From assembly GCA_964465915.1 (NCBI GenBank), contig CAYXMJ010000002.1, positions 1 to 45,232 on the forward strand: a stretch of DNA of 45,232 bases. The letters run 5' to 3'. How positions within the stretch are numbered: the first letter of the stretch is position 1; each line of letters starts with the position of its first letter. Source of the stretch: an uncultured Acidimicrobiaceae bacterium. GTDB lineage: Bacteria; Actinomycetota; Acidimicrobiia; Spongiisociales; UBA5794. The notes under the pieces were generated by a model. The model worked only from the letters and a program-made list of their open reading frames with translations. It ran no database searches and was not told the origin of the DNA. A program made the translations under genes and the position numbers. Shown here in pieces: positions 10,214 to 37,142 of this stretch.

Positions 10214-10225
10214 GCCGCCGCCACG

Positions 10226-10690: not shown

Positions 10691-10867
10691 GTCCGCTGCT
10701 CCTTCCCTTGTTCCTGGCACGAGATTGCCCGAAGCGTCGCCACCCCGCCATGGGCAATGGTCACAACTACCGGCCACTGGATACCCTCTGCTGGGCACTC
10801 CGACCCTGGTCCGTCGGTCGGTCGGTTGGCAGGCTGAGTCCGTCGCTCGACCACAAGGAGTGTTTCC

Positions 10868-11995
10868 GTGACCAGCAAGCAAGCGGACTTGGCAGGACCG
10901 GGGATGGGGGACTATTCGGAACTCGAGAAGGTGCTTCCGGAGGACTACGAGTCGCTGCTGACCCGCAAGGAGACGATGGCGGCACTCTTTGCGGCCAAGG
11001 GGTACATCGAGGAGAACCTGTGCCGCGAACTCAACCTGTTCATGGTGCAGGTCCCGCTCATCGTCGACGTCAAGAGTGGTGTCAACGACATGCTGGATCG
11101 CGATGGATCCCGGACTCCAGTGGGTTTCCACATCGCCAACGACGGAACCAACTCGATCGACGCCGAGGTGGTGCAGGCGGCGACGAAGTGGAAGCGCCCC
11201 GCGTTGGCGCAGTTCGGTTGTGAAGTCGGCGAGGGGATCTGCACCGACATGAAGGCCGTCCGCAAGGACTACTTCCTCGACCACGACCACAGCGCCTACG
11301 TCGACCAGTGGGACTGGGAGCGCGTCATCACCCCGGACCAGCGCAACCTGGAGTTCCTCACTGATGTTGTTCGCAAGATCTGGAAGGTGCTCTACGGGGC
11401 GGCCATGCACGTGCAGGACCTGTTCCCGCAGCTGGCAACGAGCAAGTATCCACCGATCCCTGAGGAGCTTAGGTTCATTCATGCTGAGGACATCCTGGAG
11501 ATGTTCCCGGACCTGCCCCGCAAGCAACGTGAGACCGCACTCCTCCAGGAGTACCCAGCCGTGTTCATCTACGGCATCGGCTGGCCGCTCGAAGATGGCT
11601 ATCCGCACGAGCTGCGCGCCGCCGACTACGACGACTGGGTGAGCGAGACCGTGTCGGCCGACGGCCGTCCGATGCACGGGCTCAACGGCGACATTCTGGT
11701 GTGGAACCCTGTGACCCGGCGCCGTCACGAGCTCACGTCGATGGGGGTGCGCGTCACCAAGGAGACACTGCGGATCCAGCTCGAGATGGCCGGGCAGGTC
11801 GACTTCCTGGAATTGCCATATCACCAGGCGATCCTCAACGACGAGATCCCGCTTTCGATCGGGGGCGGCATCGGCCAGTCGCGCACGTACATGTACCTGC
11901 TGCGCAAGGCGCACCTCGGCGAGGTATCGGTGACAGTCTGGCCCCAGATCCTCAAAGACATGTGCGCGGCCAAGGGAATCAACGTCCTTGAGTAG
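10868..11995 (+). CDS. asnA: aspartate--ammonia ligase (asparagine synthetase A)
   Basis: Blocks shared with E. coli AsnA as I recall it: VQAATKWKR, DHDHSAYVDQWDWERV, LNGDILVWNPV, ELTSMGVRV, SIGGGIGQSR. AAGGAG lies 8 nt upstream of GTG 10868. Confidence 0.9.
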   Translation: MTSKQADLAGPGMGDYSELEKVLPEDYESLLTRKETMAALFAAKGYIEENLCRELNLFMVQVPLIVDVKSGVNDMLDRDGSRTPVGFHIANDGTNSIDAEVVQAATKWKRPALAQFGCEVGEGICTDMKAVRKDYFLDHDHSAYVDQWDWERVITPDQRNLEFLTDVVRKIWKVLYGAAMHVQDLFPQLATSKYPPIPEELRFIHAEDILEMFPDLPRKQRETALLQEYPAVFIYGIGWPLEDGYPHELRAADYDDWVSETVSADGRPMHGLNGDILVWNPVTRRRHELTSMGVRVTKETLRIQLEMAGQVDFLELPYHQAILNDEIPLSIGGGIGQSRTYMYLLRKAHLGEVSVTVWPQILKDMCAAKGINVLE

Positions 11996-12100
11996 CCCCA
12001 CTGTGCCGGGATGTCGCATCGGTCGTAAAAGTGGTTGGGAAATCGGCGGTTGCATCCGATAGTCTCCACCAGAGCGAAATCGAACCGGAGGGCGCGAACG

Positions 12101-13504
12101 ATGACCGAGCAGGCCTGGCAGCAGGGGACCCATCTCAGTCCGAAAGAACGGCGAGCCCAGGGCAAGGCGGCGCGCAAAGCGGTGCCGCGCTCTAGCCACG
12201 CCCACTGGTCACCCGGCGCCGATCGTCCCGACCCGGTGGCGCTGGTCGAAGGGCAGGACACCAATCGGCTCCAGTGGCTGGTGCCGGTGCGGCGGGGCCG
12301 CATGTCGGTTTCCGCGTTCACGTTTTATCGCGGGGCGGCGCGCGTCATGGCGACCGACCTGGCGACGACACCGAACTCCGGTCTTACCGTTCAGGCGTGC
12401 GGCGATGCCCACCTGTCCAACTTCGGCTTCTACGCCTCACCCGAACGGCAATTGGTCTTCGACATCAACGACTTCGACGAGACGCTGCCAGGACCGTGGG
12501 AGTGGGACGTGAAACGCCTCGCCGCTAGTTTCATGATTGCCGGGCGCAACCGAGGCTTCTCCGACGCGGACAACCGCAAGATCACGGCCACATCAGTGGC
12601 CAGCTACCGTCAGACCATGGCCGAGATGGCCGGGACACGGACGCTCGATGTCTGGTACGCCCACCTTTCGGCAGCCGCTCTCAGGGACGCCTTCGCCAGC
12701 CGAGGTGCGAAGAAGGCAGCGAAGCGCACCAAGAAGACGGCAACCAAGGCCAAGAGCAAGGACAGCCTCCAAGCATTGCGCAAGATGGCCGAGAAGGTCG
12801 ACGGTACCTATCGAATCAAGTCCGACCACCCCGTCTTGGTACCGCTGCGCGACCTCGGAGACGCAACGGAGCAGGACCGGATTCGGCAGGCAGCGCGGCA
12901 GAGCTTCGACGAGTATCGCTCGACGATGCGTCGCGACCGGCAGTTGCTCCTCGATCGCTTCCGCCCGGTTGACATCGCGATCAAGGTCGTTGGGGTGGGC
13001 AGTGTGGGCACCCGTTGCTACATCCTCCTGCTCGAGGGTCGCGACGAGGCCGACCCGTTGTTCCTCCAGGTCAAGGAGGCAACCAAGTCGGTGCTCGAGG
13101 AACACCTGCCGGCGAGCCGCTGGCGCAACTCAGGGCGACGGGTGGTCGTGGGCCAGCGACTGATGCAATCGGCCAGCGACGTGTTCCTCGGCTGGTCGGG
13201 CAGCGTGCAGGGTTACGAGTACTACTGGCGCCAGTTGCGCGACTGGAAGGGCTCGGTCGATGTCGACGCGGCCGGGCGCAAGGCCCTCACCCGCTATGCC
13301 GCGATCTGTGGCTGGACCTTGGCTCGCAGCCATGCTCGCACCGGCGACCCGATCGCCATCGCCGCGTACCTGGGCACCGGCACCGTGTTCGACAACGCCA
13401 TCACCGAGTTCTCGGAGAAGTACGCCGATCAGAACGAGAGCGACTACGCCGAGTTCATGGGCGCCATACAGGATGGGACGCTCGTAGCGGACACCAGCGG
13501 GTAG
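12101..13504 (+). CDS. DUF2252 domain-containing protein
   Basis: LVPVRRGRMSVSAFTFYRGAARVMATDLA...QACGDAHLSNFGFYASPERQLVFDINDFDETLPGPWEWDVKRLAAS matches the DUF2252 consensus I recall. I chose ATG 12101, which has GGAGG upstream. Confidence 0.85.
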   Translation: MTEQAWQQGTHLSPKERRAQGKAARKAVPRSSHAHWSPGADRPDPVALVEGQDTNRLQWLVPVRRGRMSVSAFTFYRGAARVMATDLATTPNSGLTVQACGDAHLSNFGFYASPERQLVFDINDFDETLPGPWEWDVKRLAASFMIAGRNRGFSDADNRKITATSVASYRQTMAEMAGTRTLDVWYAHLSAAALRDAFASRGAKKAAKRTKKTATKAKSKDSLQALRKMAEKVDGTYRIKSDHPVLVPLRDLGDATEQDRIRQAARQSFDEYRSTMRRDRQLLLDRFRPVDIAIKVVGVGSVGTRCYILLLEGRDEADPLFLQVKEATKSVLEEHLPASRWRNSGRRVVVGQRLMQSASDVFLGWSGSVQGYEYYWRQLRDWKGSVDVDAAGRKALTRYAAICGWTLARSHARTGDPIAIAAYLGTGTVFDNAITEFSEKYADQNESDYAEFMGAIQDGTLVADTSG

Positions 13505-17647: not shown

Positions 17648-17714
17648 GCGCTGCGTTCGTATAGAAGCCCTCGCCGCGCCAGAATCATGGCAAATCACGA
17701 TCGCTAATGCAGGA

Positions 17715-18983
17715 ATGAGGACCAGCCAACTGATGGATCACATCCTTTACCTCGAATGCATGGTCTGCGGCAAGCAGTACGACGCCGAAGATGTCGAGTA
17801 CGTGTGTCCCGACCACGGCATAGATGGCGTACTCGACGTCATCTACGAGTACGACCGGATCGCGGCGAGCTTCCCCCGGCAACACCTCGCCGCCGACTTC
17901 GACCACAACATGTGGCGCTACCGGCCGCTGCTGCCGATCGAGGCCCACGCCGCGGTCCCGCGCCTGCATGTTGGGTGGACCCCGATGTGGCGGGTGTCGA
18001 ACGCCGGCGACCCGTATGGGCTCCACGACCTGTGGGTCAAAGATGACGGGCGTAACCCGACGGGTTCGCTGAAGGACCGGGCCAGCGCAATGGCGATCGC
18101 CAAAGCGAGGGAGGCCGGAGCCGCGGTGGTGACAACGGCCAGCACCGGAAACGCCGCTGCCGCGCTGGCGGGGCTGGCCGCCGCCGAGGGGATGCCGGTG
18201 GTGATCTTCGTGCCGCGCAGTGCGCCTGAGGCCAAGATTGCACAGCTTCTGGCCTACGGAGCCAGGGTGTTTCTGGTCGACGGCAGCTACGACGATGCCT
18301 TCTCGTTGTGTGTCGAAGCTTCGAAGCGTTTCGGCTGGTACAACCGCAATACCGGATACAACCCCTACATGAGCGAAGGGAAGAAGACCGCCGCCTTCGA
18401 GATCGCCGAACAACTCAACTGGGAGGTGCCCGACGCCGTCATCGTCAGCGTCGGAGACGGTTGCATCATCGGCGGGCTCTACAAGGGATTCCACGATCTC
18501 AACGCGCTCGGCTGGATCGAGAAGATGCCGCGCCTCATCGGTGTGCAGGCGAGCGGGTCCAACTTTCTCGAGGACGCCTGGGAGCGCGGCGAGGACGTGC
18601 TGACCAAGGCGCCGATTGCCGCTTCGAGTGTCGCCGACAGCATCGTCGCCGGCCTTCCGGCCGACCGTCTCAAGGCGATGCGAGCGGTGAAGTTCACCGA
18701 GGGTGGCTTTGTCGAGGTTTCGGACGACGAGATCCTCGCTGCCATCCCCGCGATGGCTCGCCAGACCGGCGTGTTTGCCGAACCGGCGGCCGCCGCAGCG
18801 TACGCAGGGCTGGTCGGTGCCATTGCCGAGGACCTGCTGGCGCCCGAGGACCGGGTTGTCATCCTCAGCACGGGAACCGGTCTGAAGGACGCTCCGGCCG
18901 CCATGCGGGGGGTCGCCTCCGTTGGCATCGAGGGCACGGTGATCGAACCGACGCTCGAGGCCGTTGAGAAGGCGATGAGCTAG
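17715..18983 (+). CDS. threonine synthase family PLP-dependent enzyme with N-terminal zinc-ribbon
   Basis: N-terminal CMVCG...CPDHG ribbon, PLP-lysine motif NPTGSLKDRAS, and a Gly-rich PLP phosphate loop VSVGDGCIIGG. 422 aa, typical for short-type ThrC. Confidence 0.8.
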   Translation: MRTSQLMDHILYLECMVCGKQYDAEDVEYVCPDHGIDGVLDVIYEYDRIAASFPRQHLAADFDHNMWRYRPLLPIEAHAAVPRLHVGWTPMWRVSNAGDPYGLHDLWVKDDGRNPTGSLKDRASAMAIAKAREAGAAVVTTASTGNAAAALAGLAAAEGMPVVIFVPRSAPEAKIAQLLAYGARVFLVDGSYDDAFSLCVEASKRFGWYNRNTGYNPYMSEGKKTAAFEIAEQLNWEVPDAVIVSVGDGCIIGGLYKGFHDLNALGWIEKMPRLIGVQASGSNFLEDAWERGEDVLTKAPIAASSVADSIVAGLPADRLKAMRAVKFTEGGFVEVSDDEILAAIPAMARQTGVFAEPAAAAAYAGLVGAIAEDLLAPEDRVVILSTGTGLKDAPAAMRGVASVGIEGTVIEPTLEAVEKAMS

Positions 18984-20422
18984 CCCTCGTCCTCCGGGAT
19001 GACGACGGTATAGCAGGGGCCGTCGAAGCGGTATTCGGCCGCGACCGGCGATGCATCGAAGTCGGCGACAAGGTCGTAAGGGGAAACCGCGCCCTCGGCC
19101 AGGGTCGCGGTGAGGCCACCCTGTTGGTCGAAGGTGTCTTTGTTTGGTCGGTAGAGAGCCGTGGCTCGCGTCGCCGCATCGTTGGGATTGTCGGCGAACA
19201 CGGTCGGTGGGCTGATGCCGGCAAAAACCAGTTCTCCGAGATCGGTGCGGGCCGCCAGCATACCCTCGGGGGTTAGGTCTCCCAGTTCGGCGGCGCGTTC
19301 GAGGATCTGTTTGGCTGCCGCGAACCCGAGGTAGCCCTTGACCAGGGCGTCGCTCGGATACCGGTCGGGGTAGGCATCGGCGAGAGCCGCATAGACGCCG
19401 GGCATACCTGCAACCTCGGCGCCCATGGGCGACAGGAGGGCAGAATGCAACCAGTTCTCCGCCAGGTAATCCCCGAGCTCGGTGGCGAGCAATCGTGGGC
19501 TGAACGATGGCGCGGCACCGGACCAGGCTCCGGCATACCCTTCGGTGAGCGCCGCCGCAACAATCTCGGCCGCTGAGGCCGGGTCGGTGGCGAGCCACGT
19601 CCAGTCGGCTCCAATTCCGGCAATCTCGCCGCCAATGGCGCTGTTGTCCCGGACCGGGTCGATGGTTCCGCCGCCGTCGAAGCGAACCTCGAGACCGAGC
19701 TCCTCGGCCAGGATGCGAGCTCCCGTGGCGGAGTCCTCTCCATACACGGTGCCGTCGGTGGCGATCGCCAGGATCGGCAGCGCCCCAGTCTGCTCTTGGT
19801 GTGCGATGGCGATGGCGTTCAACCCATTCATGGCCTCGATGCAATAGCTGCTGCCGGTTGCGATCACGTTGGCGCCGATACCGGGATCCGCCCAGCCCGA
19901 GTACGAGCCGGCGGCGACGGCGAGCCGAGTATCGGCGACGAGATCGTCAGCGATGGCGGCAGTGTTCTGCGATCCCACGGTGTGCGAGAAGAGCACCACC
20001 CGACTCTTCAGCCGCTCGTAGGCCGCTTGGTGGGCGGCAAGGTCAGAGCCGGTGTCGGCGATGAGGAGCTCGACTTGGCGACCCGCAATGCCCCCGGTTT
20101 CGTTGAGGTCACTCCAGAAGACGAGCTGGGCATCCACCAAGTCGACATCGTTGCTCGACAGTGGGCCGCTCAGATCCGCCAGGAGCCCTACGTAGATGGT
20201 GTCGGCGGTGACGGTGTCACCGTCGGTCTCGATGCCGTCGTCAACCGCGGCGGTCGTGGTTGTTGTGGCCGGGGCCGCGGTCGTGGCGGTTGTGGCCGTC
20301 CTCGTTGCCGTGGTGCTGGTTGTTGGCGTGTTCACAGAGTCCGATTGATCGGAGCCACTGCAGCCGGCAGTTGCGAGCGCGAGCACGACGGCCAGACTCA
20401 CTCCTCCCAGCAGCCGGCTCAC
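18980..20422 (-). CDS. ABC transporter substrate-binding lipoprotein, type-1 periplasmic binding fold (branched-chain amino acid / LivJ-like)
   Basis: Lipoprotein signal MSRLLGGVSLAVVLALATAGC and a Thr-rich linker, followed by about 400 aa with LivJ-like features (IYVGLLADLSGP, GGIAGRQVEL). The GTG start overlaps the upstream stop (GTGA). Confidence 0.75.
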   Translation of the reverse strand: MSRLLGGVSLAVVLALATAGCSGSDQSDSVNTPTTSTTATRTATTATTAAPATTTTTAAVDDGIETDGDTVTADTIYVGLLADLSGPLSSNDVDLVDAQLVFWSDLNETGGIAGRQVELLIADTGSDLAAHQAAYERLKSRVVLFSHTVGSQNTAAIADDLVADTRLAVAAGSYSGWADPGIGANVIATGSSYCIEAMNGLNAIAIAHQEQTGALPILAIATDGTVYGEDSATGARILAEELGLEVRFDGGGTIDPVRDNSAIGGEIAGIGADWTWLATDPASAAEIVAAALTEGYAGAWSGAAPSFSPRLLATELGDYLAENWLHSALLSPMGAEVAGMPGVYAALADAYPDRYPSDALVKGYLGFAAAKQILERAAELGDLTPEGMLAARTDLGELVFAGISPPTVFADNPNDAATRATALYRPNKDTFDQQGGLTATLAEGAVSPYDLVADFDASPVAAEYRFDGPCYTVVIPEDEG

Positions 20423-26905: not shown

Positions 26906-29257
26906 TCAGCGGAGGGCGGCGCCGAAGTGGTCGCCGACTCCAGTGGCACCGAGGATGCCGGCCGAGTTCTGGTGCCACACCTGGTCGCGGTTGGCGGTCA
27001 ATCCGATGCCCGATCCGTAGATGACATGGACGGCGCCGGCCTCGTTCTTGCCTCCGGCACGGTCGAACGGAACACCGATGACGAGGTCCATGAACCCGCC
27101 ACCGCCGAAGTCGCCGACGGTGACGGCCGATCCGAATCGGTCGCCGCTGCGGGCGACGCCGAGGATGCCGGCGGAGTCCCGATGCCAAAGGCGGTCGCCG
27201 GCGGCAACCAGTCCGGATCCGGCTCCCATGATGACGTTGACTCCGCCCTTGGTGTTGTTGTCCCCAGGCACTCCGACGGCAAGATCGTCTTCACCGTCGC
27301 CATCGAAGTCACCAGACGTCAAGGCTTCACCGAAGTGTTCGCCTGCCCCGGCGGCTCCGCTGATCCCGGGGCTCGCCTGGCTCCACAGTTGATTGCCGGC
27401 GGCGACCAGACCGGCGTTCTTCCCGTACAGGACATTGACGGCTCCGGCGTCGGACGCTCCGCTGAGATTGTCGAAGGGCACGCCGACAGCCAAGTCGTCC
27501 CGATCGTCGCCGTCGAAGTCACCGACGGCAAGGGCAGACCCGAAGTTGTCTCCGGCTTGGGCGCTTCCTTCGATCTTGGTCTTGCGTTGGTGCCACATCC
27601 CGTTGCCTGCGGCCCGGAGCCCTGCTCCGCTTCCGTAGATGACGTTGATGATGCCCACATCCTTGATCCCGGCGATGTTCTCCAGCGGCACGCCTACGGC
27701 GAGGTCATCTCTCCCGTTCCCGTCGAAGTCCCCTGCCGCCACCGCAGAACCAAAGGCGTCTCCGGGCTGAGCCGCACCGATGATGTCGGGGTGGTCCTGC
27801 TTCCACCGTTGGTTTCCGGCGGTGTTGAGGCCGCTGGCTGATCCATAGAGGACGTTGACCGCGCCGGCCCCAGCCCGCCCCGAGTTCGCCCCGGGCACTC
27901 CGATGGCGAGGTCGTCGAAGCCGTCGCCGTCGAAGTCGCCGGTCGTCAATGCGGAGCCAAACCCGTCCCCGGCCCGCATCGGGCCTTTGACATTGGGGCT
28001 GTCCGCCGTCCACCGCTGATCACCGGTTGCACTCAACCCCGATGGGGTTCCGTACAACACGCTGACCTCGCCGCTGTCGTCGCTGTGGCCCGGAGCCCCG
28101 ATGGCGACGTCGCTGAACCCGTCGCCGTCGAAATCGCCGCAGGTCACGGCGGCTCCGAAATGGTCGTCGACTCGGGCGAGGCCTATGACACCGGCCGAGT
28201 TCTGGTGCCACAGTTGGTTGCCGGTGCTCTCGAGGCGGGTTGGCGATCCATAGAGCACGTTGACCGCTCCGGCGTTGGCGGGGCCCGGCTCATCGTCGTC
28301 CGGTGCACCGATGGCAACATCGGAAAAGCCATCACCGTTGATGTCGCACGTCAGGTCGGGACGGGGGGCATGTGCCAGCATCACGATGTCCTTGGAGTCC
28401 GAGAACAGCGTCTGCGGGGCCTTGGAATCGTCGCGCCGGACGGATGTGTTGGCCCTTCCTTCGTAGCCTTCGCCGCTATACCGCACGTAGAAGAGGGTCT
28501 CGCTGTCGATGTCCCACACCGGAGACTCCAAGCGATGGTTGGACGTCTCCCGGACCCTCACCGCACCCCCATCGGCGGGTTCGTCGACGACCTCCCAGCC
28601 GGCGCCACCGGAGCGTACGTATGCGATTCTGAGGCCGTCGGGCGACCAGGCCGGCTGGCCGGCGTCACCGCCCGCCAAATGAAGCGTGGTGGTTCCATCC
28701 AGGGAGGTGACATGAATGCCGTCTTGGCGTTCGTAAACCAGGCGTGAGCCCGAGGGGTCCCACGCCGGGCTTATCCCGCTGCGCGTTCCGGGGATCCTCT
28801 TCTCGCCCTTCCCGGTGACCCGTATCCGCATGATGGTGCAGCACGTGTCGCGATCCATGTTGCCCTCGGTGTTGCGGCTGAAGGCGATCCAATTGCCGTT
28901 GGCGGACCACGCCGGATCGAAGTCGCCGAGTGGAGGGTCGGTGAGTTGCTCGAGGCCACTGCCGTCGACGTTGACGAGGTAGATCGCCCAGCGGCCATCG
29001 GTCCCGTCGGTGATGGGGCCGGAGAAGGCGATCCGAGTGCCGTCCGGGGAGAACGCCGGGCGGCCGATGATCGGCCGGCTGAGCGGTGCTCGGTCGTTGC
29101 TGCCGGCGCCGTTGGTGATCTTCAACTCGTAGTAGAAGTCGTCCTGCTGGAAGGTCAGGAAGGCGAAGTCGTCGTCGGCGTTGTCGGCGGCGGCAGGCGC
29201 CGCGGTGGCGATCAGGGTGAGCACCACCAAGCCGATCAGCTGCGTCAGCTGCCTCAT
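26906..29257 (-). CDS. secreted double beta-propeller protein: N-terminal TolB/PD40-like repeats + seven FG-GAP (integrin-alpha-like) repeats
   Basis: Sec signal MRQLTQLIGLVVLTLIATAAPAAA. PD40-like blades (PAFSPDGTRIAFS, PAWSANGNWIAFS, PAWDPSGSRLVYE, PAWSPDGLRIAYV). Seven repeats of FG...GDFDGDGxxDLAxGxP...GAVxVxYG spaced 66-70 aa apart. The ATG overlaps the upstream stop (ATGA). Confidence 0.85.
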   Translation of the reverse strand: MRQLTQLIGLVVLTLIATAAPAAADNADDDFAFLTFQQDDFYYELKITNGAGSNDRAPLSRPIIGRPAFSPDGTRIAFSGPITDGTDGRWAIYLVNVDGSGLEQLTDPPLGDFDPAWSANGNWIAFSRNTEGNMDRDTCCTIMRIRVTGKGEKRIPGTRSGISPAWDPSGSRLVYERQDGIHVTSLDGTTTLHLAGGDAGQPAWSPDGLRIAYVRSGGAGWEVVDEPADGGAVRVRETSNHRLESPVWDIDSETLFYVRYSGEGYEGRANTSVRRDDSKAPQTLFSDSKDIVMLAHAPRPDLTCDINGDGFSDVAIGAPDDDEPGPANAGAVNVLYGSPTRLESTGNQLWHQNSAGVIGLARVDDHFGAAVTCGDFDGDGFSDVAIGAPGHSDDSGEVSVLYGTPSGLSATGDQRWTADSPNVKGPMRAGDGFGSALTTGDFDGDGFDDLAIGVPGANSGRAGAGAVNVLYGSASGLNTAGNQRWKQDHPDIIGAAQPGDAFGSAVAAGDFDGNGRDDLAVGVPLENIAGIKDVGIINVIYGSGAGLRAAGNGMWHQRKTKIEGSAQAGDNFGSALAVGDFDGDDRDDLAVGVPFDNLSGASDAGAVNVLYGKNAGLVAAGNQLWSQASPGISGAAGAGEHFGEALTSGDFDGDGEDDLAVGVPGDNNTKGGVNVIMGAGSGLVAAGDRLWHRDSAGILGVARSGDRFGSAVTVGDFGGGGFMDLVIGVPFDRAGGKNEAGAVHVIYGSGIGLTANRDQVWHQNSAGILGATGVGDHFGAALR
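26909..28360 (-). repeat. intragenic approximately 200-210-nt periodicity encoding the seven FG-GAP blades
   Basis: On the plus strand, variants of gtcgccgtcgaagtcgcc...ccgaa recur near 27100, 27300, 27510, 27720, 27930, 28120 and 28330. The copies are divergent, not identical. Confidence 0.7.
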
Positions 29258-29727
29258 AGGATACCCGGTGGGTAGGCGGACGTGATCTTGATCGTTGCCA
29301 ACAACTGGTCGGCGCGACGCGCCAGCTCTTCGCGGTTTCCGTAGCTACCGATGACGACGTACAGACAGAAGGCCCGACCGTTCTCCGTGAAGAAGTCCTG
29401 ATAACCGGCCTGGTTGGGGATCCAGCGTTGGAGGCGGTTGGTGCCGAAGCGGTCCGGATCGATGCGACGGGGCAGCGTGCCGGGCGAGAACAGGGCCGAG
29501 TTGACCGCCTCGTCGCCGTATTCGAGGAGTGAGACGAACACGTCGCTCGGTCCCATCACTTCGACGGCGCGGCTGCCAAAGTCGCCCCGTCCCTCGGGAA
29601 GCGGGAAGGTGCCGGCGTGCAGAACCGGCTTGGAGACATCCTCGGGCTCGCGGGGCAGGTGCCTGGTGATCCGCACCTCCCAGCCAATTGGGGTGTCGGC
29701 GCGCAGGCCGTGGGCTTCAACTCTCAC
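29254..29727 (-). CDS. hypothetical protein, no recognised family, no signal peptide
   Basis: 157-aa ORF with high GC3. The GTG start overlaps the upstream stop (GTGA), and its own stop overlaps the downstream ATG (ATGA). This position in the operon supports expression. Confidence 0.6.
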   Translation of the reverse strand: MRVEAHGLRADTPIGWEVRITRHLPREPEDVSKPVLHAGTFPLPEGRGDFGSRAVEVMGPSDVFVSLLEYGDEAVNSALFSPGTLPRRIDPDRFGTNRLQRWIPNQAGYQDFFTENGRAFCLYVVIGSYGNREELARRADQLLATIKITSAYPPGIL

Positions 29728-30326
29728 GCGGCCACCCCAGCGAGTAATGCGGTGGTACCGGCAATCGCACAGGATGCCGCCAGCACGTTGTTCATGGGAT
29801 GGGCGAACGCTTCGACCCTACGGTGCAGGGCCTGCAACCCCGAGGCGGTGGTAACCCGGCGGGTCGAGAGCAGCGGCAGCGCCCGGGCGAACCCGAAAGC
29901 GATGCCAATGATGAGGCCACCCTGCCACGAGAACGTCAGGAATTCGATGAGGAACATGAGGTAGATCGCAGCGGTCGGCACGATGGTGGCCCAGCCCAGG
30001 CCAAGTTGGTAGCCGAAACCGAAGCCGACGACCCAGCCGCGATAGGTATCGAGCCAGTTTTCGTTGACCTGGCGGTGGACGGTCGGCAGGGGGATGCCGA
30101 TCCATCCCATCTCGACGGCGGCGACGATCAAGGCGAGGACGCCGATCACCACGGCAACCGCCGCTGTCGGAGGCCGGACGGACTCGGGGATCAGGCTGCC
30201 GAGCCACCCGAGCGTGATCCCGACCGTTGCACCCCCGGCGATCGAACCAGCGAAGTAGAACGCCGCCGTCGTCGCCCAGTTTCTTTCGCGTCCCTGCTCA
30301 CCGAGCGGGGTGATGCTGGCCAGCAT
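29724..30326 (-). CDS. polytopic (about six TM) membrane protein, family not recognised
   Basis: 200 aa with six hydrophobic segments (for example FYFAGSIAGGATVGITLGWLGSLI, VAVVIGVLALIVAAV, WVVGFGFGYQLGLGWATIV, GGLIIGIAFGFARALPLL). It has only one Cys, so it is not a CcdA/DsbD-type thiol transporter. GGAGAG lies 3 nt upstream of the ATG. Confidence 0.65.
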   Translation of the reverse strand: MLASITPLGEQGRERNWATTAAFYFAGSIAGGATVGITLGWLGSLIPESVRPPTAAVAVVIGVLALIVAAVEMGWIGIPLPTVHRQVNENWLDTYRGWVVGFGFGYQLGLGWATIVPTAAIYLMFLIEFLTFSWQGGLIIGIAFGFARALPLLSTRRVTTASGLQALHRRVEAFAHPMNNVLAASCAIAGTTALLAGVAA

Positions 30327-30335
30327 CGACTCTCC

Positions 30336-30413
30336 TCACGGTGACCAACTGGACCGAATCGCGGCAGCGGCGGCGATCACGACCCCGGCGACAATGATCC
30401 CGACGCTTGTCAC
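30336..30413 (-). CDS. unannotated 25-codon single-TM mini-ORF (MTSVGIIVAGVVIAAAAAIRSSWSP)
   Basis: Below the ORF-track size cutoff. The GTG at 30411-30413 overlaps the TGA of the upstream thioredoxin-like gene (GTGA), the same coupling used elsewhere in the operon. Its stop lies 9 nt before the next ATG and fills an otherwise empty 83-nt gap. The peptide has a hydrophobic core, and 19 of the 25 sense codons have G/C at position 3. Confidence 0.4.
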   Translation of the reverse strand: MTSVGIIVAGVVIAAAAAIRSSWSP

Positions 30414-31141
30414 TGCTTTTCGTCTTCTTGATCTTGGTCCGGGTAAAGGCTGGGGTGACCGGGGTAGATGCCGGCAGCCAGCAACTCGCGGTCGACGACG
30501 TCCTCACGATCGGCGTCGGCGCGGGCTTTGCGCCCTCTGCGCTTCTTGGTGTCGTCGAGGGCTTCACCCATCAGGCGTAGCAACTGGTCCCAGGTGCTGG
30601 CCGACCCTTCGCCGGCGATCGATCCGGTCGCTCCATCAACGAGAACAAAGTAGGGCGAGCCCGGTACCTGGTAGTCGTTCCAGGCCTGATCGGACATGAC
30701 CACGGGGTAGTCGCCGGACGCCAGCTTGGCGATGCGGGATGGGCTCTCCTCGTTGTCACCCTTGGTGAGCACGACGAGGCGGGTGGCGCCGAGACCCTCG
30801 GGACCCTTGTCGAACGTCTCCCAGAATTCGGCGCAGCCGAGGCATCCGCTCGAGAGGAAGGCGAGCAGTGTCTTCTGTTTGGCGCCGAGCACTCGGATCC
30901 CGATGCCATCACCCTCCGGTCCGGTGCCCGAGATGTCGTGGGCCTGGATCACTTCGCCGCGCGGGGTCGCCACGGACGGGGCGAAGTTGAGGTCCGGCGT
31001 GCCTTGGTCGTGATCGTGCTCGAGGCCCGCTCCCAGACTGTCGAGTTGGCGGAGAATCTCGGCGTGGCTGCGTAGCAGGCTCGCCACCAGCAGGCCGAGC
31101 AGGAGGATCACAGCAGCCTCGGCGATGATGAGGGCGGTCAT
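30410..31141 (-). CDS. membrane-anchored thioredoxin-fold protein (TlpA/MauD-like) with CxxC
   Basis: N-terminal TM MTALIIAEAAVILLLGLLVASLL and a thioredoxin-like core with the active-site context LLAFLSSGCLGCAEFW. Later come VVLTKGD and GSPYFVLVD, the cis-Pro region. I chose the ATG at 31141, which overlaps the upstream stop (ATGA). Confidence 0.75.
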   Translation of the reverse strand: MTALIIAEAAVILLLGLLVASLLRSHAEILRQLDSLGAGLEHDHDQGTPDLNFAPSVATPRGEVIQAHDISGTGPEGDGIGIRVLGAKQKTLLAFLSSGCLGCAEFWETFDKGPEGLGATRLVVLTKGDNEESPSRIAKLASGDYPVVMSDQAWNDYQVPGSPYFVLVDGATGSIAGEGSASTWDQLLRLMGEALDDTKKRRGRKARADADREDVVDRELLAAGIYPGHPSLYPDQDQEDEKQ

Positions 31142-31758
31142 CTGCAGTCTCCCGCCAAGCATGGCGCGGTCTGTTGACCGGTCTGGTTATCGATCCGCAG
31201 CGAGGTCCCGCAGTCGTCGAACAACTGATACGGCGGCACACAAGTCACTACCCGGCAAGCAACCGGGCCGCTGCATCCGATCTCCGTATGGCATTGGCCG
31301 TAGCGGAAGTAGTTGCAGCACACCCGTCGCCGGTCGCAGGTCGTCTCGTTGCATCGGCATCGGCAGGAGATGCACGACGGATTGCAGAAGCGGCCGTTCT
31401 CGCATCCGTTGGTGCAAGTGCACTGAGGATGGCAATCGATGTAGTAGCGGGCCTTCGGATTGCCGTTCCCGTCACAGCAATAGGTCGAACTATCCGCCCG
31501 CCACCAGCCGCCGACGAACATCCCGGGCGGGCAGCGGTTGATGCCCCGGTTGGTGGTGCAACAGAAGATGGTGTAGCCGTTCGAGCATTCGGAGTACGGA
31601 CCGCACACTGCGGCATAGGCCGTCATCGGGCGCAGGATGAAGTCGAGTGGCGCGGTCAGCAATGCCGAGCCGACGACAGCGACCCTGGCCAGGAAGGAGC
31701 GGCGGCTGTGCTCTCCACCGAGCGCTCGAGCGGTTCGTTCTGCAAGGCGGCGACTCAT
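31138..31758 (-). CDS. Tat-signal, extremely Cys-rich secreted protein with methylamine dehydrogenase light chain (MauA)-like N-terminal half
   Basis: 206 aa. Twin-arginine signal HSRRSFLARVAVVGSALL with an AYA-AV cleavage-like site. The mature part is about 157 aa with 26 Cys. The Cys spacing C-x5-C-x7-CC-x8-CPPG-x5-WW resembles MauA as I recall it (C-x5-C-x6-C-x-C-x7-CPPG-x7-W). The ATG overlaps the mauE-like stop (ATGA). Confidence 0.75.
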   Translation of the reverse strand: MSRRLAERTARALGGEHSRRSFLARVAVVGSALLTAPLDFILRPMTAYAAVCGPYSECSNGYTIFCCTTNRGINRCPPGMFVGGWWRADSSTYCCDGNGNPKARYYIDCHPQCTCTNGCENGRFCNPSCISCRCRCNETTCDRRRVCCNYFRYGQCHTEIGCSGPVACRVVTCVPPYQLFDDCGTSLRIDNQTGQQTAPCLAGDCR

Positions 31759-32297
31759 GCTTCGGCCCTCACTGGGATGACGGTGGGTAGGACGTTGAGG
31801 ATCAGATATGCGAACCACGTGCCCAGCGCCACAAATGCGACAAGGACGAGGCCGGCCAGGGGGTCGTTGGAGATCGCGTCGATGATGCCCGTCACCGGAG
31901 CCGCGACGGCACCAAGCGCAACGGCGGCCGCGGCAAGGTTGAGGATGAGGTGCGCCCATGTCGGCGGGGTGTCGTCACGCCCGAAACACCCGCACGAGGC
32001 GACGACGCCGCCCTTGGCGAGGGCATACCCGACAAAGCCGGCGAATCCGAGGTACACGATGGCGACGAGGAGAGCACTGGTGCTGCCGCCGAACAGCAGG
32101 GCGTAGCCCCCAATCGTGATCTCGGCCAACGCCATGAGCCGTACCAGCAGAGGAGATCCGGGCAAGCCGACAGAGCGAAGGGCTCGCGCCGTCTCGTCGG
32201 GACGGGCGAGCTTTGGTGCCCCCGCCACGATGAGGAGGAGGGAGGCGATGTAGAGCGGTCCAGCCATCGTCTGCATCGGTGGCGGGGATAGTGGCAC
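31755..32297 (-). CDS. MauE/DoxX family redox-associated membrane protein
   Basis: 180 aa, about four TM helices. N-terminal ...LLLIVAGAPKLARPDETARAL and the conserved CGCFG motif (VVASCGCFGRDD), typical of the MauE family. The start codon is uncertain (GTG 32297 or internal Met codons). Confidence 0.8.
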   Translation of the reverse strand: MPLSPPPMQTMAGPLYIASLLLIVAGAPKLARPDETARALRSVGLPGSPLLVRLMALAEITIGGYALLFGGSTSALLVAIVYLGFAGFVGYALAKGGVVASCGCFGRDDTPPTWAHLILNLAAAAVALGAVAAPVTGIIDAISNDPLAGLVLVAFVALGTWFAYLILNVLPTVIPVRAEA

Positions 32298-32333: not shown

Positions 32334-32555
32334 TCAGCGGTAGAAGAGGCTGGAAACGACGATGGCGGCGCCGGCGGCAGCGACCAGCAGCGACACAAAG
32401 CGGATCAGGAAACTGGTCGAAGCCATGAGACCCCCGCTTGATCGCGAGTACCGCGACGGCCAATGGGCGGCAAGGCGATCCACCAGGTCGAGGGAGTTGG
32501 AGGCCAGCGCCACGCCGATGAGGAGAACGGCCACGCCAAAGACGATGAGGCCCAT
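32334..32555 (-). CDS. small two-TM membrane protein (73 aa), probable first gene of the operon
   Basis: The internal ATG at 32555 is preceded by AAGGAG with 6-nt spacing. The product is MGLIVFGVAVLLIGVALASNS...FLIRFVSLLVAAAGAAIVVSSLFYR. The stop lies 36 nt before the mauE-like start. Confidence 0.5.
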   Translation of the reverse strand: MGLIVFGVAVLLIGVALASNSLDLVDRLAAHWPSRYSRSSGGLMASTSFLIRFVSLLVAAAGAAIVVSSLFYR

Positions 32556-32663
32556 CTTGACTCCTTGCTTGTTCCTCCCATGATACGAGTGATCGGCGAT
32601 GGCGAACAGAGCATTCTGGATCCTCCACGACTTGGGCACGCTGCCTTGGGTAGCATGCACAAC

Positions 32664-33077
32664 ATGCCCGACCAACCCTCGGTTCTGTTTCTCTGCACCC
32701 ACAACGCCGGGCGGTCGCAGATGGCGGCTGGGTGGCTTCGGCACCTTTCGGGAGGAGCGGTCGCGGTGTATTCGGCAGGCTCGAACCCCGGTAGTGAGGT
32801 GAATCCGGTGGCCGTTGCGGCGATGGCCGAGGTCGGCATCGATATCGCCTCGGCTCAGCCGCAGAAGTGGACCGACTCCATGGTACGCGTCGCCGACGTG
32901 ATCGTCTCAATGGGGTGTGGCGACACGTGCCCGGTCTACCCGGGCAAGAGATACCTCGATTGGGAACTCGACGATCCCCACGGTGCCGGGATCGACGCGG
33001 TGCGTCCGATCCGCGATGAGATCGAGGTCAGGATCCGCGGGCTGCTGGCCGAGTTGGAAGTCACCCCCGTTGCCTGA
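32664..33077 (+). CDS. arsC: arsenate reductase, low-molecular-weight phosphatase family
   Basis: P-loop LFLCTHNAGRSQMAAGW and a downstream Cys pair in MGCGDTCP. 137 aa. There is no Shine-Dalgarno sequence; a TAGCAT -10-like hexamer ends 7 nt before the ATG. Confidence 0.85.
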   Translation: MPDQPSVLFLCTHNAGRSQMAAGWLRHLSGGAVAVYSAGSNPGSEVNPVAVAAMAEVGIDIASAQPQKWTDSMVRVADVIVSMGCGDTCPVYPGKRYLDWELDDPHGAGIDAVRPIRDEIEVRIRGLLAELEVTPVA

Positions 33078-33090
33078 ACAGCAGGTCTCC

Positions 33091-33780
33091 GTGGGGAGGA
33101 GGGTTACCGCAGAGTTCGTCGGCACAGCGTTCTTGCTTGCCGGGATCGTGGGTTCGGGCATCATGGCCAGCAGGCTGACCTCGGATTCCGGGCTCCAGCT
33201 GCTCCAAAACGCCTTGGCCACGGGCGCTCTGCTCACGGCTCTCATCCTCGCCTTTGGCCCGCTTTCGGGAGGACACTTCAACCCAGTTGTGACGGGCGCC
33301 GACTGGTGGTTTGGTGGTCTGCCCCGCAGCGAAGCTCTTGCCTACGTTGGGGCGCAACTCGGCGGCGGAATCCTCGGCGTCATGATTGCGAACCTGATGT
33401 TTGATCTCGACGCCATAGCCTGGTCGACCACCGACCGCACCGGCGTCAACCTCTGGTTGGCCGAGGTCGTTGCCACCTTTGGGCTCCTCATGGTCATCTT
33501 TGGTGTGGTTCGCTCGGGCCGGCACGGCGTTGCTCCCTTTGCCGTCGGCGCCTACATCGTCGGTGCGTTCTATTTCACCTCATCGACCAGCTTTGCCAAC
33601 CCGGCGGTGACCGTGGGTCGGATGTTCTCGGATACGTTTGCCGGCATCGCCCCCGCATCGGCGCCCGGGTTCGTTGTCGCCGAGATCGTCGGCATGGTCC
33701 TGGCGGTGGTTGCGGTGCGGTTCCTGTATCCCGATGTCGATGAACATGCGGTGGAAGTCGTCGTCCCCCACGGCGGCTAG
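33091..33780 (+). CDS. MIP/aquaporin family channel (probable arsenite/metalloid channel by context)
   Basis: Two NPA-type motifs (HFNPVVT and FANPAVT) and six TM segments. I chose the GTG at 33091, 13 nt after the arsC stop. Confidence 0.85.
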   Translation: MGRRVTAEFVGTAFLLAGIVGSGIMASRLTSDSGLQLLQNALATGALLTALILAFGPLSGGHFNPVVTGADWWFGGLPRSEALAYVGAQLGGGILGVMIANLMFDLDAIAWSTTDRTGVNLWLAEVVATFGLLMVIFGVVRSGRHGVAPFAVGAYIVGAFYFTSSTSFANPAVTVGRMFSDTFAGIAPASAPGFVVAEIVGMVLAVVAVRFLYPDVDEHAVEVVVPHGG

Positions 33781-34572: not shown

Positions 34573-35253
34573 GTGCACATACCCGATGGGTTCATCAACC
34601 CCAGTGTTTCGGCGGCCGCAGGCGTGGTAGCAGCCGGGGGCTTCGGCGTTGCAGTGCGCCGGGCCCGCTCCTACCTCACGGAGCGTCTTGTTCCGATGGC
34701 CGCCCTGGTTGCCGCCTTCGTCTTTGCGGCCCAGATGGTCAACTTCCCCGTCCTCCCCGGCATGAGCGGTCACCTCATCGGCGCTGTGCTTGCCGCCGTG
34801 CTGGTCGGCCCGGCCGCCGGATACATGGTGATGAGCATTGTCCTCATTGTCCAAGCGCTCGTCTTTGCCGACGGAGGGCTGTCGGCTCTCGGGCTCAACA
34901 TCGTGAACATGGCGCTGGTCGGCGCGGTCGGTGGCTACTACCTGTTCCGTTCCTTGATGCGGGCCACCGGCAATCGCCGCGGCCGCGTCCCAATGGTGGC
35001 CGGAATCGCTGCCTTTGCGTCGGTACCGCTCGTGGCGGTTGCCTTCGCCATCGAGTTTGCCATCGGCGGTACCGCCGAGAGCCTGTCGATCGGGACCATT
35101 CTCTGGGCGCTGCTCACCACGCACACCCTGATCGGGATTGGCGAAGGGCTCATCACTGGACTCGTGGTTGGGGCGGTGATGGCCGCACGGCCCGACCTCG
35201 TCTACGGCGCGCCGAGCTTTGCCGGGCGGAGAACCACGGAGTCGGTCCAATGA
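34573..35253 (+). CDS. ECF transporter substrate-capture subunit CbiM/NikM
   Basis: The N-terminal MHIPDGF is the metal-ligating N-terminus of CbiM/NikM. 226 aa with seven TM segments. Confidence 0.9.
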   Translation: MHIPDGFINPSVSAAAGVVAAGGFGVAVRRARSYLTERLVPMAALVAAFVFAAQMVNFPVLPGMSGHLIGAVLAAVLVGPAAGYMVMSIVLIVQALVFADGGLSALGLNIVNMALVGAVGGYYLFRSLMRATGNRRGRVPMVAGIAAFASVPLVAVAFAIEFAIGGTAESLSIGTILWALLTTHTLIGIGEGLITGLVVGAVMAARPDLVYGAPSFAGRRTTESVQ

Positions 35254-35582
35254 GTTCTGTGGGGCGGCGGCGCAACCTTGTGCTGTTCGGCGGGGCGCTG
35301 GCTCTGGTCATCGTCACCGCCGTCGGGCTCTCCCAACTGGCTTCCGATCAACCCGATGGTCTCGAATTCGTCGCCGAACAAGAAGGGTTCGCCGGTTCTG
35401 CAGATGAGCACGGACTGTCCGAGGCGCCGCTGGCCGGCTATGGAGAGAACCTCGACGGAACCGACTCGACCAACGTTGCAGTCGCCGGTCTTGTCGGCGT
35501 CCTTGTCACCTTGGGTCTTGGGTTTGGGGTCTTCTGGCTCATCAGGGCGGGTGGCTCACCACCGGAATCGGCCGGGAGCTGA
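35250..35582 (+). CDS. PDGLE domain protein (CbiN/NikN-equivalent small subunit)
   Basis: Literal PDGLE motif (SDQPDGLEFVAE) flanked by two TM helices. The ATG overlaps the cbiM stop (ATGA). Confidence 0.75.
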   Translation: MSSVGRRRNLVLFGGALALVIVTAVGLSQLASDQPDGLEFVAEQEGFAGSADEHGLSEAPLAGYGENLDGTDSTNVAVAGLVGVLVTLGLGFGVFWLIRAGGSPPESAGS

Positions 35583-35583
35583 C

Positions 35584-36348
35584 GTGGCGGGCGGCCATGT
35601 CCACGCCCTCTTCCGGCACGGCGACTCGGCTCTCCACCGGGTGGCGCCTCAGGTCAAGATCGTGGCGGCCTTTGGGTTTGTGCTCGCCGTGGTCGTCACC
35701 CCTCGGGAGGCCTTCTGGGCGTTCGGCCTGTATCTCGCCACGCTGGCGGTCCTGATCGCTATCGCCGGGCTCCCGCCCGGCTATGTGGCGCGCCGCATGG
35801 TCGTCGAGATCCCGTTTCTGATTGTTGCCGTGTTGCTTCCGTTGTTTGGGTCGGGCGATCGCATCGAAGTCCTCGGCATGTCGCTGTCCGAGCAAGGGCT
35901 CTGGGACATGTGGAACCTCCTGGCCAAGGCCACCCTCGGGCTGCTCACCGCCATTGTGCTCGGGGCGACCACCCAGGTGCCCGATCTGCTCAAGGGTCTG
36001 GATGCTCTCCACGTTCCCGGTGTTGTCACCGCCATCATTTCGTTCATGGTCCGCTACGTCGATGTGATTCTCGGCGAGTTCTCCCGGATGCAGGTGGCGA
36101 TGGCGTCGCGCGGTCATGAGGTCCGGTCCGTCATGGGGTGGCGCCCTTACGCCAAGACGTTTGGGGCCATGTTCGTACGCACCTATGAACGGGGCGAGCG
36201 GGTCTACCTGGCGATGGCGTCGCGGGGCTACTCGGGAACCATGCCGGCGTCGCTGCGGGTGCCCGCTCCCGCGGCTCAGTGGGTTGCTGCGTTCGGCCTG
36301 GTCGCCGCCGCGTGGCTGGTGGCACTGCTGGGATGGGCCCAACAATGA
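35584..36348 (+). CDS. ECF transporter transmembrane (T) component CbiQ
   Basis: I chose the GTG at 35584, 1 nt after the upstream stop. The CbiQ-like sequence includes the ...MASRGHEV... and ...ERVYLAMASRGY motifs. The upstream part of the 356-aa track ORF overlaps the PDGLE gene in another frame. Confidence 0.8.
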   Translation: MAGGHVHALFRHGDSALHRVAPQVKIVAAFGFVLAVVVTPREAFWAFGLYLATLAVLIAIAGLPPGYVARRMVVEIPFLIVAVLLPLFGSGDRIEVLGMSLSEQGLWDMWNLLAKATLGLLTAIVLGATTQVPDLLKGLDALHVPGVVTAIISFMVRYVDVILGEFSRMQVAMASRGHEVRSVMGWRPYAKTFGAMFVRTYERGERVYLAMASRGYSGTMPASLRVPAPAAQWVAAFGLVAAAWLVALLGWAQQ

Positions 36349-37142
36349 CGGCCCCCGTGATCGCAGTGGACGGCCTCGACTTCGTCTATCCGGACGGCAC
36401 CGCAGCCCTCGAGGGGATCCATCTCCACGTCCACCGGGGTGAGCGCATCGCGTTGCTCGGGCCGAACGGAGCCGGCAAGACGACCTTGGTGCTCCACCTG
36501 AACGGTATTCACCTGCCCCAGCATGGCACCGTCGACGTCTCGGGGCTGCGACTCGACGCCGACTCGCTGATGGAGATTCGGCGCAGGGTCGGCATCGTCT
36601 TCCAGGATCCCGACGATCAGCTGTTCATGACGACGGTTCGCGAGGACGTCGAGTTTGGTCCCCGCAACCTCGGGCTCATCGGTGCTGAGTTGGACCGCAG
36701 GGTTGATCGTGCCCTCGCCGCGGTCGAGGTGGGTGATCTCGCTGATCGACCGCCGTCGCACCTTTCGTTTGGGCAGAAGCGTCGGGTGGCCATTGCGGGA
36801 GTGCTTGCCATGGACCCGGAGATCATCATTCTCGACGAGCCGACCTCCAACCTCGATCCGGCCAGCCGGCGCGAACTCACCGCGACGTTGCGGAGCCTGG
36901 ATGTGACCCAGATGATCGTCACCCACGACCTGCTGTACGCCCTCGAACTGTGTGAGCGCACCGTGATCCTCGATCGGGGTTCCATCGTTGCCGACGGACC
37001 AACCCGTGAGTTGCTTGCCGACACGGACCTACTCGAGCGTCACCGGCTGGCCCTGCCCGCCGGAGTACGTCTCGAATCACGTTCTGGCGTGGCTGAGGTG
37101 CCAAAAACCGAACCCGAGCCACGCAAGAACGGATTTGTCTAG
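36345..37142 (+). CDS. ECF transporter ATPase CbiO
   Basis: Walker A GPNGAGKTT, Q-loop, signature LSFGQKRR, Walker B IIILDEPTSNLD. The ATG overlaps the cbiQ stop (ATGA). Confidence 0.9.
   Translation: MTAPVIAVDGLDFVYPDGTAALEGIHLHVHRGERIALLGPNGAGKTTLVLHLNGIHLPQHGTVDVSGLRLDADSLMEIRRRVGIVFQDPDDQLFMTTVREDVEFGPRNLGLIGAELDRRVDRALAAVEVGDLADRPPSHLSFGQKRRVAIAGVLAMDPEIIILDEPTSNLDPASRRELTATLRSLDVTQMIVTHDLLYALELCERTVILDRGSIVADGPTRELLADTDLLERHRLALPAGVRLESRSGVAEVPKTEPEPRKNGFV

Follow-up and report, generated by a model that had tools for sequence, protein, structure and literature searches.

A cysteine-rich Tat substrate in a six-gene operon

The stretch of DNA analysed here, called the window in the following, comprises 45,232 nucleotides of contig CAYXMJ010000002.1 from an uncultured Acidimicrobiaceae bacterium. 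Its minus strand carries a gene for a cysteine-rich protein, here designated X, with a signal for twin-arginine translocation (Tat). The first-pass annotation of this DNA, made from the sequence alone, had singled out X and passed over its operon context. The gene is the second of a six-gene minus-strand operon, in the order MauE, X, a CxxC thioredoxin homologous to MauD, a MauF homologue, a 157-amino-acid protein (P157) and a PD40/FG-GAP propeller:

31755..32297, minus strand: mauE-like gene, 180 amino acids (aa), membrane protein of the DoxX/MauE fold with a CGC motif (SCGCFG); Pfam MauE, 5.2e-18
31138..31758, minus strand: X, predicted Tat-exported cysteine-rich protein, 206 aa plus stop; translation of the open reading frame (ORF) and family conservation
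31609..31758, minus strand: leader of X, residues 1-50, with an N-terminal helix, S-R-R-S-F-L, a hydrophobic core and an A-Y-A cleavage site
31141..31608, minus strand: mature domain of X, residues 51-206, 26 Cys; invariant columns, Cys covariation and AlphaFold2 (AF2) model
31501..31506, minus strand: codons of W85-W86, the sole Trp residues of X, invariant in the family
30410..31162, minus strand: MauD-like thioredoxin-fold protein, 250 aa as listed, with an N-terminal membrane anchor and CLGC; BLASTP and profile
29724..30326, minus strand: MauF-like polytopic membrane protein, 200 aa, without conserved Cys; BLASTP and profile
29254..29727, minus strand: P157, 157 aa, no signal peptide, adjoining the cassette in 72/80 loci
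26906..29257, minus strand: secreted PD40 beta-propeller with 7 FG-GAP repeats, 783 aa, last gene of the operon; Pfam

The X gene is genuine and translationally coupled within the operon. Its start is joined by an ATGA overlap to the stop of the upstream mauE-like gene, and a Shine-Dalgarno-like GAGGG motif lies 8 nt upstream. A second ATGA joins the stop of X to M8 of the downstream MauD-like gene and, because of this overlap, M8 (at 31141) is the probable true start of the latter. At 90% clustering 135 homologues of X were found, every one named 'hypothetical', and at 50% clustering the X domain has at least 563 representatives (E ≤ 1e-3). In 90 close homologues the RR of the leader, G84-W85-W86, R104, D108, R144, F151-R152-Y153-G154-Q155-C156, R169 and at least 13 cysteines are invariant, while P44, A47 and A50 are nearly so.

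The leader, in which SRRSFL is followed by a hydrophobic stretch and A-Y-A, passed the NCBIfam TAT_signal model (TIGR01409; 17.6 bits, cutoff 16.7), as expected from the canonical Tat signal that had been proposed for it. Among the 157 residues past AYA, 26 (16.6%) are cysteines, in agreement with the earlier count, and 15 aromatic residues were counted in the mature part. W85-W86 is indeed the only tryptophan pair of the protein, and the motifs quoted earlier (CGPYSEC, NGYTIFCC, CPPG, GGWW, CTCTNGC and CISCRCRC) were all found.

We compared the operon with a reference mau cluster of Paracoccus (L087; gene order mauF-B-E-D-A-C-J-G-M-N). When BLASTP was run against its ten Mau proteins, each cassette protein best matched its own cognate: the membrane protein matched MauF (3e-7), the thioredoxin MauD (1.7e-5), the MauE-like protein MauE (5e-3) and X MauA (0.01, leader only). 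No counterpart of P157 or of the PD40 protein was found among these ten proteins. When family profiles were aligned with hhalign, the membrane protein matched MauF over 166 columns (Prob 97.7, E 2e-12) and the thioredoxin matched MauD (Prob 96.3, E 1.5e-9). The top NCBIfam match of the thioredoxin was MauD (TIGR02661), far under the cutoff. As its score falls below this equivalog cutoff, the sequence comparison classes it as a homologue and not an orthologue of MauD.

The CGC motif is kept in 61/61 MauE orthologues of related loci and the CxxC motif in 70/71 thioredoxin orthologues. MauE has been described to replace DsbB, with its CXC motif being required (bioRxiv 10.64898/2026.03.05.709764), and the mauE-like product of the window is presumed to be a quinone-linked disulfide oxidase. 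A MauE with a CXC motif, a membrane-anchored CxxC homologue of MauD and a MauF-type membrane protein, the components of a Mau-type oxidative-folding module, are therefore all encoded in the operon. Mutants of mauF, mauE or mauD reportedly lose the methylamine dehydrogenase (MADH) small subunit.

The 200-aa MauF-like protein has no Pfam or NCBIfam match, and most of its orthologues have 0-1 Cys. MauF has no Pfam family on record in Paracoccus L087 either, and MauF-like proteins are probably under-annotated across Actinomycetota. We also considered a CcdA/DsbD-like identity for this protein; a weak DsbD_2 flag was seen in one orthologue only, and with 0-1 Cys the MauF-like assignment was preferred. 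The Pfam scan of the window covered its ~26 largest ORFs, and neither MauB (PF06433) nor MauG (PF03150) nor amicyanin was found among them. A search of the window for CxxCH revealed no ORF with two such motifs, and hence no di-haem ORF.

Distribution and architecture of the X family

A genome scan with one genome per species yielded at least 547 X loci, and neighbourhoods were analysed for the 80 best. These all belong to Actinomycetota and include Acidimicrobiia, Frankiaceae, Mycobacteriales, Kineococcus, Phycicoccus, Dermatophilaceae, Iamia, Microthrixaceae, Euzebyaceae and Egibacteraceae. The cassette MauE-X-thioredoxin-membrane protein-P157(-PD40) recurs in the distant metagenomic contigs L001-L004, and two layouts occur among the 80 loci: that of the window (MauE-X-thioredoxin-MauF'-P157-PD40), and MauE-thioredoxin-MauF'-P157-X. 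When ORFs were clustered over ~6-7 kb on each side of X, no further gene family was conserved near the cassette in the 80 loci, and no haem peroxidase, flavoprotein or radical SAM protein was among the conserved neighbours; nor were MauB and MauG. In an Acidimicrobiales locus (L006, positions 9786-12988) a 329-aa Cys-rich gene lies in a divergent context: its neighbours, namely a methyltransferase, a 72-aa ORF and two proteins of 232 and 162 aa, do not match the usual cassette at E ≤ 1e-2.

It has been described that tryptophan tryptophylquinone (TTQ) requires MauG, and that cysteine tryptophylquinone (CTQ) requires QhpD/E/G or LodB-type enzymes (PMC11951088). None of the cofactor-maturation enzymes MauG, QhpD/E/G or LodB-like was co-encoded with X in the 80 loci, which argues against the earlier idea of a CTQ-like cofactor derived from Trp and Cys. 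We found no description of the X-domain family in the literature, the nearest precedent being PMC7794033, and no Pfam or NCBIfam model exists for the domain.

Most representatives of X are 250-740 aa long, with the X domain at the N-terminus. Of 100 long relatives, LGFP repeats were found in 34, and CWB2, SLH, ricin, tectonin, B-lectin or FG-GAP domains in others. LGFP-like tails also follow X in cultured Kineococcus, Phycicoccus and Iamia, as read by eye without a Pfam scan. Likewise by eye, at least four tandem LGFP-like repeats or tectonin-like 'DGRLEVF...W' propeller repeats were seen past the Cys-rich head in long forms from L048, L038, L031 (Kineococcus), L077 (Phycicoccus), L085 (Iamia) and L062 (Microthrixaceae). 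Cultured strains with complete genomes carry long forms of X.

The X protein of the window has no tail. In the tblastn table of the 80 loci, the cassette was directly followed by a PD40 gene on its own strand in 15 loci, all with short X proteins (~200 aa). Of the complete short-X loci, three had no PD40 match, and no long-X locus had such a downstream gene. Because of the fusions, and because PD40 occurs only beside short X, we infer by a Rosetta-stone argument that X partners a propeller, lectin or cell-wall-binding module at the envelope, and the PD40/FG-GAP protein is the likely partner in this lineage. We also considered it as a MauB-like heavy chain. It has no similarity to MauB and most loci have no PD40 match, so PD40 is not a universal heavy chain.

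P157 had no match in Pfam, NCBIfam or PDB, also when its profile was searched against PDB. Its family has the invariant residues W16, H37, D49, Q110, R118 and Y123, and its AF2 model is confident (predicted local distance difference test, pLDDT, 95). Foldseek returned only non-significant PsbP-, DUF1795(EagT6)-, Tsi3- and MucB-like matches (E 0.03-0.3). P157 may accompany the long Tat leader of X in the cytoplasm, as an escort or chaperone.

The AF2 model of X is also confident, with a pLDDT of 86.5 overall and >90 across most of the mature part. A long beta-hairpin (80-95/101-111) bears the invariant G84-W85-W86, R104, Y105 and D108, and the invariant Trp, Arg, Asp, Tyr and Gln residues of X may together form a binding or catalytic surface. 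Foldseek of the model gave nothing at E<1 in PDB and nothing at E<0.3 in BFVD. The C-terminal half had been regarded as a new Cys-dense extension. This was not borne out: residues 110-140 are variable and in part missing from relatives, whereas residues 141-200 are the best-conserved stretch, and the mature part is a single domain.

Not every one of the 26 cysteines is conserved in the relatives. Among 265 X-domain sequences the number of cysteines is even in 94%, and cysteine columns are gained and lost in pairs, namely C95-C205 (phi 0.92), C134-C148 (0.88), C132-C147 (0.87), C67-C200 (0.84) and C58-C136 (0.60); C113, C115, C125 and C129 vary as one block. Because of the paired gain and loss and the even counts, the sequences point to disulfides and not to metal sites, and the metallothionein-like or metal-binding role proposed earlier is contradicted. 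Together with the coupled oxidase and thioredoxin, the even and paired cysteines indicate ~13 predicted disulfides in the X protein of the window. Unlike a metallothionein, X has a Tat leader, 15 aromatic residues, pairwise Cys covariation and a coupled disulfide oxidase.

Relationship of X to the methylamine dehydrogenase light chain

The first-pass annotation had likened the N-terminal half of X to MauA, the MADH light chain. Our comparison with MauA is valid because the Paracoccus denitrificans sequence used is identical to PDB 1MG2 chain B. The Pfam family of MADH and aromatic amine dehydrogenase (AADH) light chains, PF02975, did not match X at E ≤ 1 and was found in 0/120 close X homologues, compared to all MauA homologues. 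Pairwise BLASTP of X with MauA gave no significant match. The X sequence matched no PDB chain in phmmer, entries of quinohaemoprotein amine dehydrogenase (QHNDH) included, and in an hmmsearch of PDB with the family profile only the lectin tails of long relatives matched. Foldseek of the X model found no MADH light chain in PDB, a method that is weak on folds poor in secondary structure.

The profile-profile comparison proposed in the earlier annotation gave a mixed result. At full length, the X family aligned to a 36-sequence MauA alignment with Prob 96.5 and E 9.5e-10, the aligned block running through the leader and on into the mature part as far as CPPGT. After removal of the leaders, ~22 columns (DG..CC..G...CPPGT) were aligned with a score of 20.2 and an E of 0.016, which lies within the shuffled nulls given below. 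The likeness to MauA is thus partly supported: the match is strong over the leader and the first mature residues but marginal for the mature domain, which falls within or near the nulls and lacks PF02975. The profile of the X leader scored 25.7 against the MauA leader, the best of 11 Tat leaders, with an alignment that extends upstream of RR; ten control Tat leaders scored 11.7-21.1. We did not take this likeness as decisive since, although MauA is the best match, much of the score is generic to Tat leaders.

In a relaxed alignment of low confidence, W86 falls on Trp57 of TTQ, D108 on Asp76 and the variable residue 161 on Trp108. As was claimed earlier, a Trp57-Trp108 cross-link cannot arise in X: only W85-W86 is conserved and, because there is no second conserved Trp, TTQ cannot form. 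From the profile alignments, the leader together with the ~35 mature residues that follow it is plausibly a distant homologue of the corresponding part of MauA. X shares its biogenesis system with MauA, and probably a distant ancestry.

Interpretation and comparison with known systems

Taken together, we consider it fairly probable that a dedicated Mau-type oxidative-folding module has X as its client and that X, without TTQ, becomes a hyper-disulfide envelope domain in which the invariant W, R, D, Y and Q residues would form the binding or active site. The X precursor would be made with a 50-residue Tat leader that has an extra N-terminal helix like that of MauA, would probably be escorted by P157 in the cytoplasm, and would be exported via Tat and then cut after A-Y-A. 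Outside the membrane, the CGC-type MauE (DsbB-like and quinone-linked) would re-oxidise the anchored CxxC thioredoxin. This MauD homologue would install the ~13 disulfides in X, with the MauF homologue assisting. The product would be a compact, hyper-cross-linked domain of ~157 aa acting at the cell envelope. Its fusion partners in most lineages are LGFP repeats, which bind the cell wall, or tails of the lectin or propeller type; here it would probably pair with the co-transcribed secreted PD40/FG-GAP propeller.

Several points weigh against this interpretation. The X family is known from sequences and predicted models alone, and the Tat export of an unoxidised Cys-rich protein is unexplained. 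The leaderless hhalign score of X and MauA was reached by 17/299 column-shuffled nulls, and null tests with hidden Markov models of the mature domain gave 4/300 (MauA model on X sequences) and 25/300 (reverse), so that the mature-domain similarity is marginal (empirical P about 0.01-0.08). As Foldseek found no MADH light chain, the shared machinery could reflect recruitment instead of common descent of the clients. MauE is now seen as a general DsbB-like oxidase that is not specific for MauA clients (bioRxiv 10.64898/2026.03.05.709764), and the MauF-like protein is without Cys. The proposed chaperone role of P157 draws on non-significant fold matches and on the missing signal peptide. Finally, the many invariant polar and aromatic residues of X suggest a specific activity, which the folding-client interpretation leaves unnamed.

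X could also be a disulfide-stabilised secreted effector, such as an antimicrobial defensin-like protein or a protease or lysozyme inhibitor, or a large product resembling peptides that are made on ribosomes and modified after translation (RiPPs), with the tails for targeting and P157 as immunity protein or escort. Secreted effectors are typically targeted by modules such as the ricin, B-lectin, tectonin, CWB2, SLH and LGFP tails, the weak fold matches of P157 include the immunity protein Tsi3 and the effector chaperone EagT6, and a RiPP-like nature was proposed for Streptomyces clusters in which mauE/mauD occur with small Cys-rich ORFs (PMC7794033). However, the gene is chromosomal with housekeeping flanks wherever these were annotated (window and L001-L006), and we saw no features of mobility, toxin delivery or polymorphic toxins. 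The 80 best loci come from many actinobacterial families and share no other gene family with the cassette, and the domain is 50-80% identical across classes, unlike effectors in an arms race. Moreover, X acts extracellularly, and P157 is a protein of the cytoplasm. We regard an effector as unlikely.

Somewhat more doubtful still is that X represents a highly diverged relative of the MADH/AADH light chain in which W86 bears another protein-derived redox cofactor, such as 7-hydroxy-Trp, a Trp-quinone or a Trp-Cys/Tyr cross-link. X would then dock on a beta-propeller, in this operon the PD40/FG-GAP protein, and serve as the catalytic or redox subunit. The flanking MauF/E/D homologues, the MauA-like leader and the co-encoded or fused propeller would fit this, as would the invariance of WW, R104, D108 and Y153. 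The low-confidence alignment places not only W86 on Trp57 and D108 on Asp76 (RYYIDC versus AYRDCC) but also D/N60-G61 on Asp32-Gly33. In addition, preMADH has 7-OH-Trp before MauG acts, one Trp oxygenation being MauG-independent (PMC11951088). On the other hand, a second conserved Trp is missing, no MauG, QhpD/E/G or LodB-type enzyme is encoded in the window or the 80 loci, neither PF02975 nor Foldseek gave a match, and the mature hhalign similarity does not exceed the composition-matched nulls (17/299). The PD40 partner is unrelated to MauB and missing from most loci, and the frequent LGFP fusion is unlike any known quinoprotein dehydrogenase. The pairs C58-C136 and C67-C200, deduced from covariation, also differ from the disulfides C29-C61 and C38-C86 of MADH. 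A narrower version, in which X is a MauG-independent tryptophylquinone light-chain offshoot whose W85-W86 receives a novel modification by the MauF/E/D-like proteins or P157, appears improbable.

The operon is flanked by two sets of genes for metals or metalloids:

32463-33780, plus strand: ArsC-type low-molecular-weight phosphatase and MIP channel, flanking operon
34573-37142, plus strand: CbiM/N/Q/O-type Ni/Co uptake genes, flanking operon

The earlier annotation had pointed to these arsenic and nickel genes. They are present in the window, but ArsC is retained only in the close relatives L001 and L002 and neither set occurs in distant loci. We rejected this context as meaningful; because the neighbours are not kept in distant loci, they are incidental and have no functional link to X. 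A role of X as a secreted protein that binds metal or a metal cluster (metallothionein-like or Fe-S), which would explain Tat export and the metal-gene neighbours, is very improbable: Tat is known to often export cofactor-loaded proteins, the Cys density is high (16.6%) and ArsC-like, MIP and CbiMNQO genes adjoin the operon, yet the cysteines are gained and lost pairwise with even counts in 94%, translational coupling ties X to a disulfide oxidase and a CxxC thioredoxin, there is neither a CxxCxxCxxxC ferredoxin motif nor an invariant His, and the metal genes do not stay beside the cassette.

Two further ORFs of the window were noted. The last ~120 aa of a 659-aa ORF at 10226-12205 (minus strand) match YbaK/tRNA_edit, and its N-terminal ~520 aa have no family match. 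A 719-aa ORF at 17685-19844 (minus strand) has no Pfam match and overlaps a periplasmic-binding-protein gene (18980-20422, minus strand); as a long ORF in a high-GC genome, it is probably spurious.

As a client of the folding module, X would be a natural substrate of MauF/E/D outside methylotrophy, with 11-13 disulfides, in hundreds of Gram-positive genomes that include cultured Kineococcus and Phycicoccus. MauE was recognised as a DsbB-like oxidase only in 2026, and through X the roles of MauD and MauF become directly testable. The family is moreover a large unannotated one, most members of which are the heads of actinobacterial LGFP, lectin or propeller envelope proteins. If the distant link to MauA is true, the family would be an evolutionary sister of the TTQ light chain and would show what that scaffold does without TTQ. 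If W85/W86 is modified, X would hold a new protein-derived cofactor in a cell-wall-anchored redox or catalytic domain of Actinomycetota, and would offer a handle on the unexplained first Trp hydroxylation in TTQ biogenesis. Should none of this hold, X remains an ordinary secreted protein, conserved and hypothetical, that has a folding system dedicated to it.

Among known systems, MauA of the mau cluster (L087) shares with X the long N-region of the Tat leader, a small, very Cys-rich exported product, the adjoining MauE, MauD-type thioredoxin and MauF-type membrane protein, and a DG..C(x)C..G...CPPG segment with a Trp 6-7 residues past CPPG. X differs in the missing PF02975 and second TTQ Trp, in having 22-26 Cys compared to 12 in MauA, and in its ~157-aa mature domain with a different conserved second half (FRYGQC, CRVVTC). 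Its locus lacks mauB, mauG, amicyanin, mauJ and mauM/N and has the extra conserved P157; the 80 best loci are all actinobacterial, and LGFP or lectin tails are frequent. QhpC, the gamma subunit of QHNDH with CTQ and thioethers, is likewise a small, heavily cross-linked Trp-cofactor subunit on a beta-propeller, as X would be if it were a light chain (PMC11951088). In contrast to QhpC, X has a Tat leader and no PDB match including QHNDH, and its neighbourhood lacks QhpD (radical SAM), QhpE (protease) and QhpG (flavoprotein).

The Streptomyces decRiPPter clusters (PMC7794033) resemble the X locus in that mauE, with or without mauD, lies beside a product with at least 8 Cys while the rest of mau is absent. 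By their description, these candidates are short putative RiPP precursors, whereas X is a folded domain of 200 aa that bears a Tat leader. Long X relatives are built like LGFP proteins such as Corynebacterium PS1, a head domain being followed by C-terminal LGFP repeats (34/100); their head is the Cys-rich domain and not an esterase/hydrolase, and the copy in the window is tailless. Finally, the cassette resembles DsbB-DsbA, VKOR-DsbA and the MauE pathway (bioRxiv 10.64898/2026.03.05.709764) in combining a membrane oxidase, here with CGC, with a thioredoxin-fold CxxC partner. Unlike in these systems, the pair is translationally coupled to one client, X, with which it travels across hundreds of genomes, and it therefore appears to be a dedicated rather than a general system.

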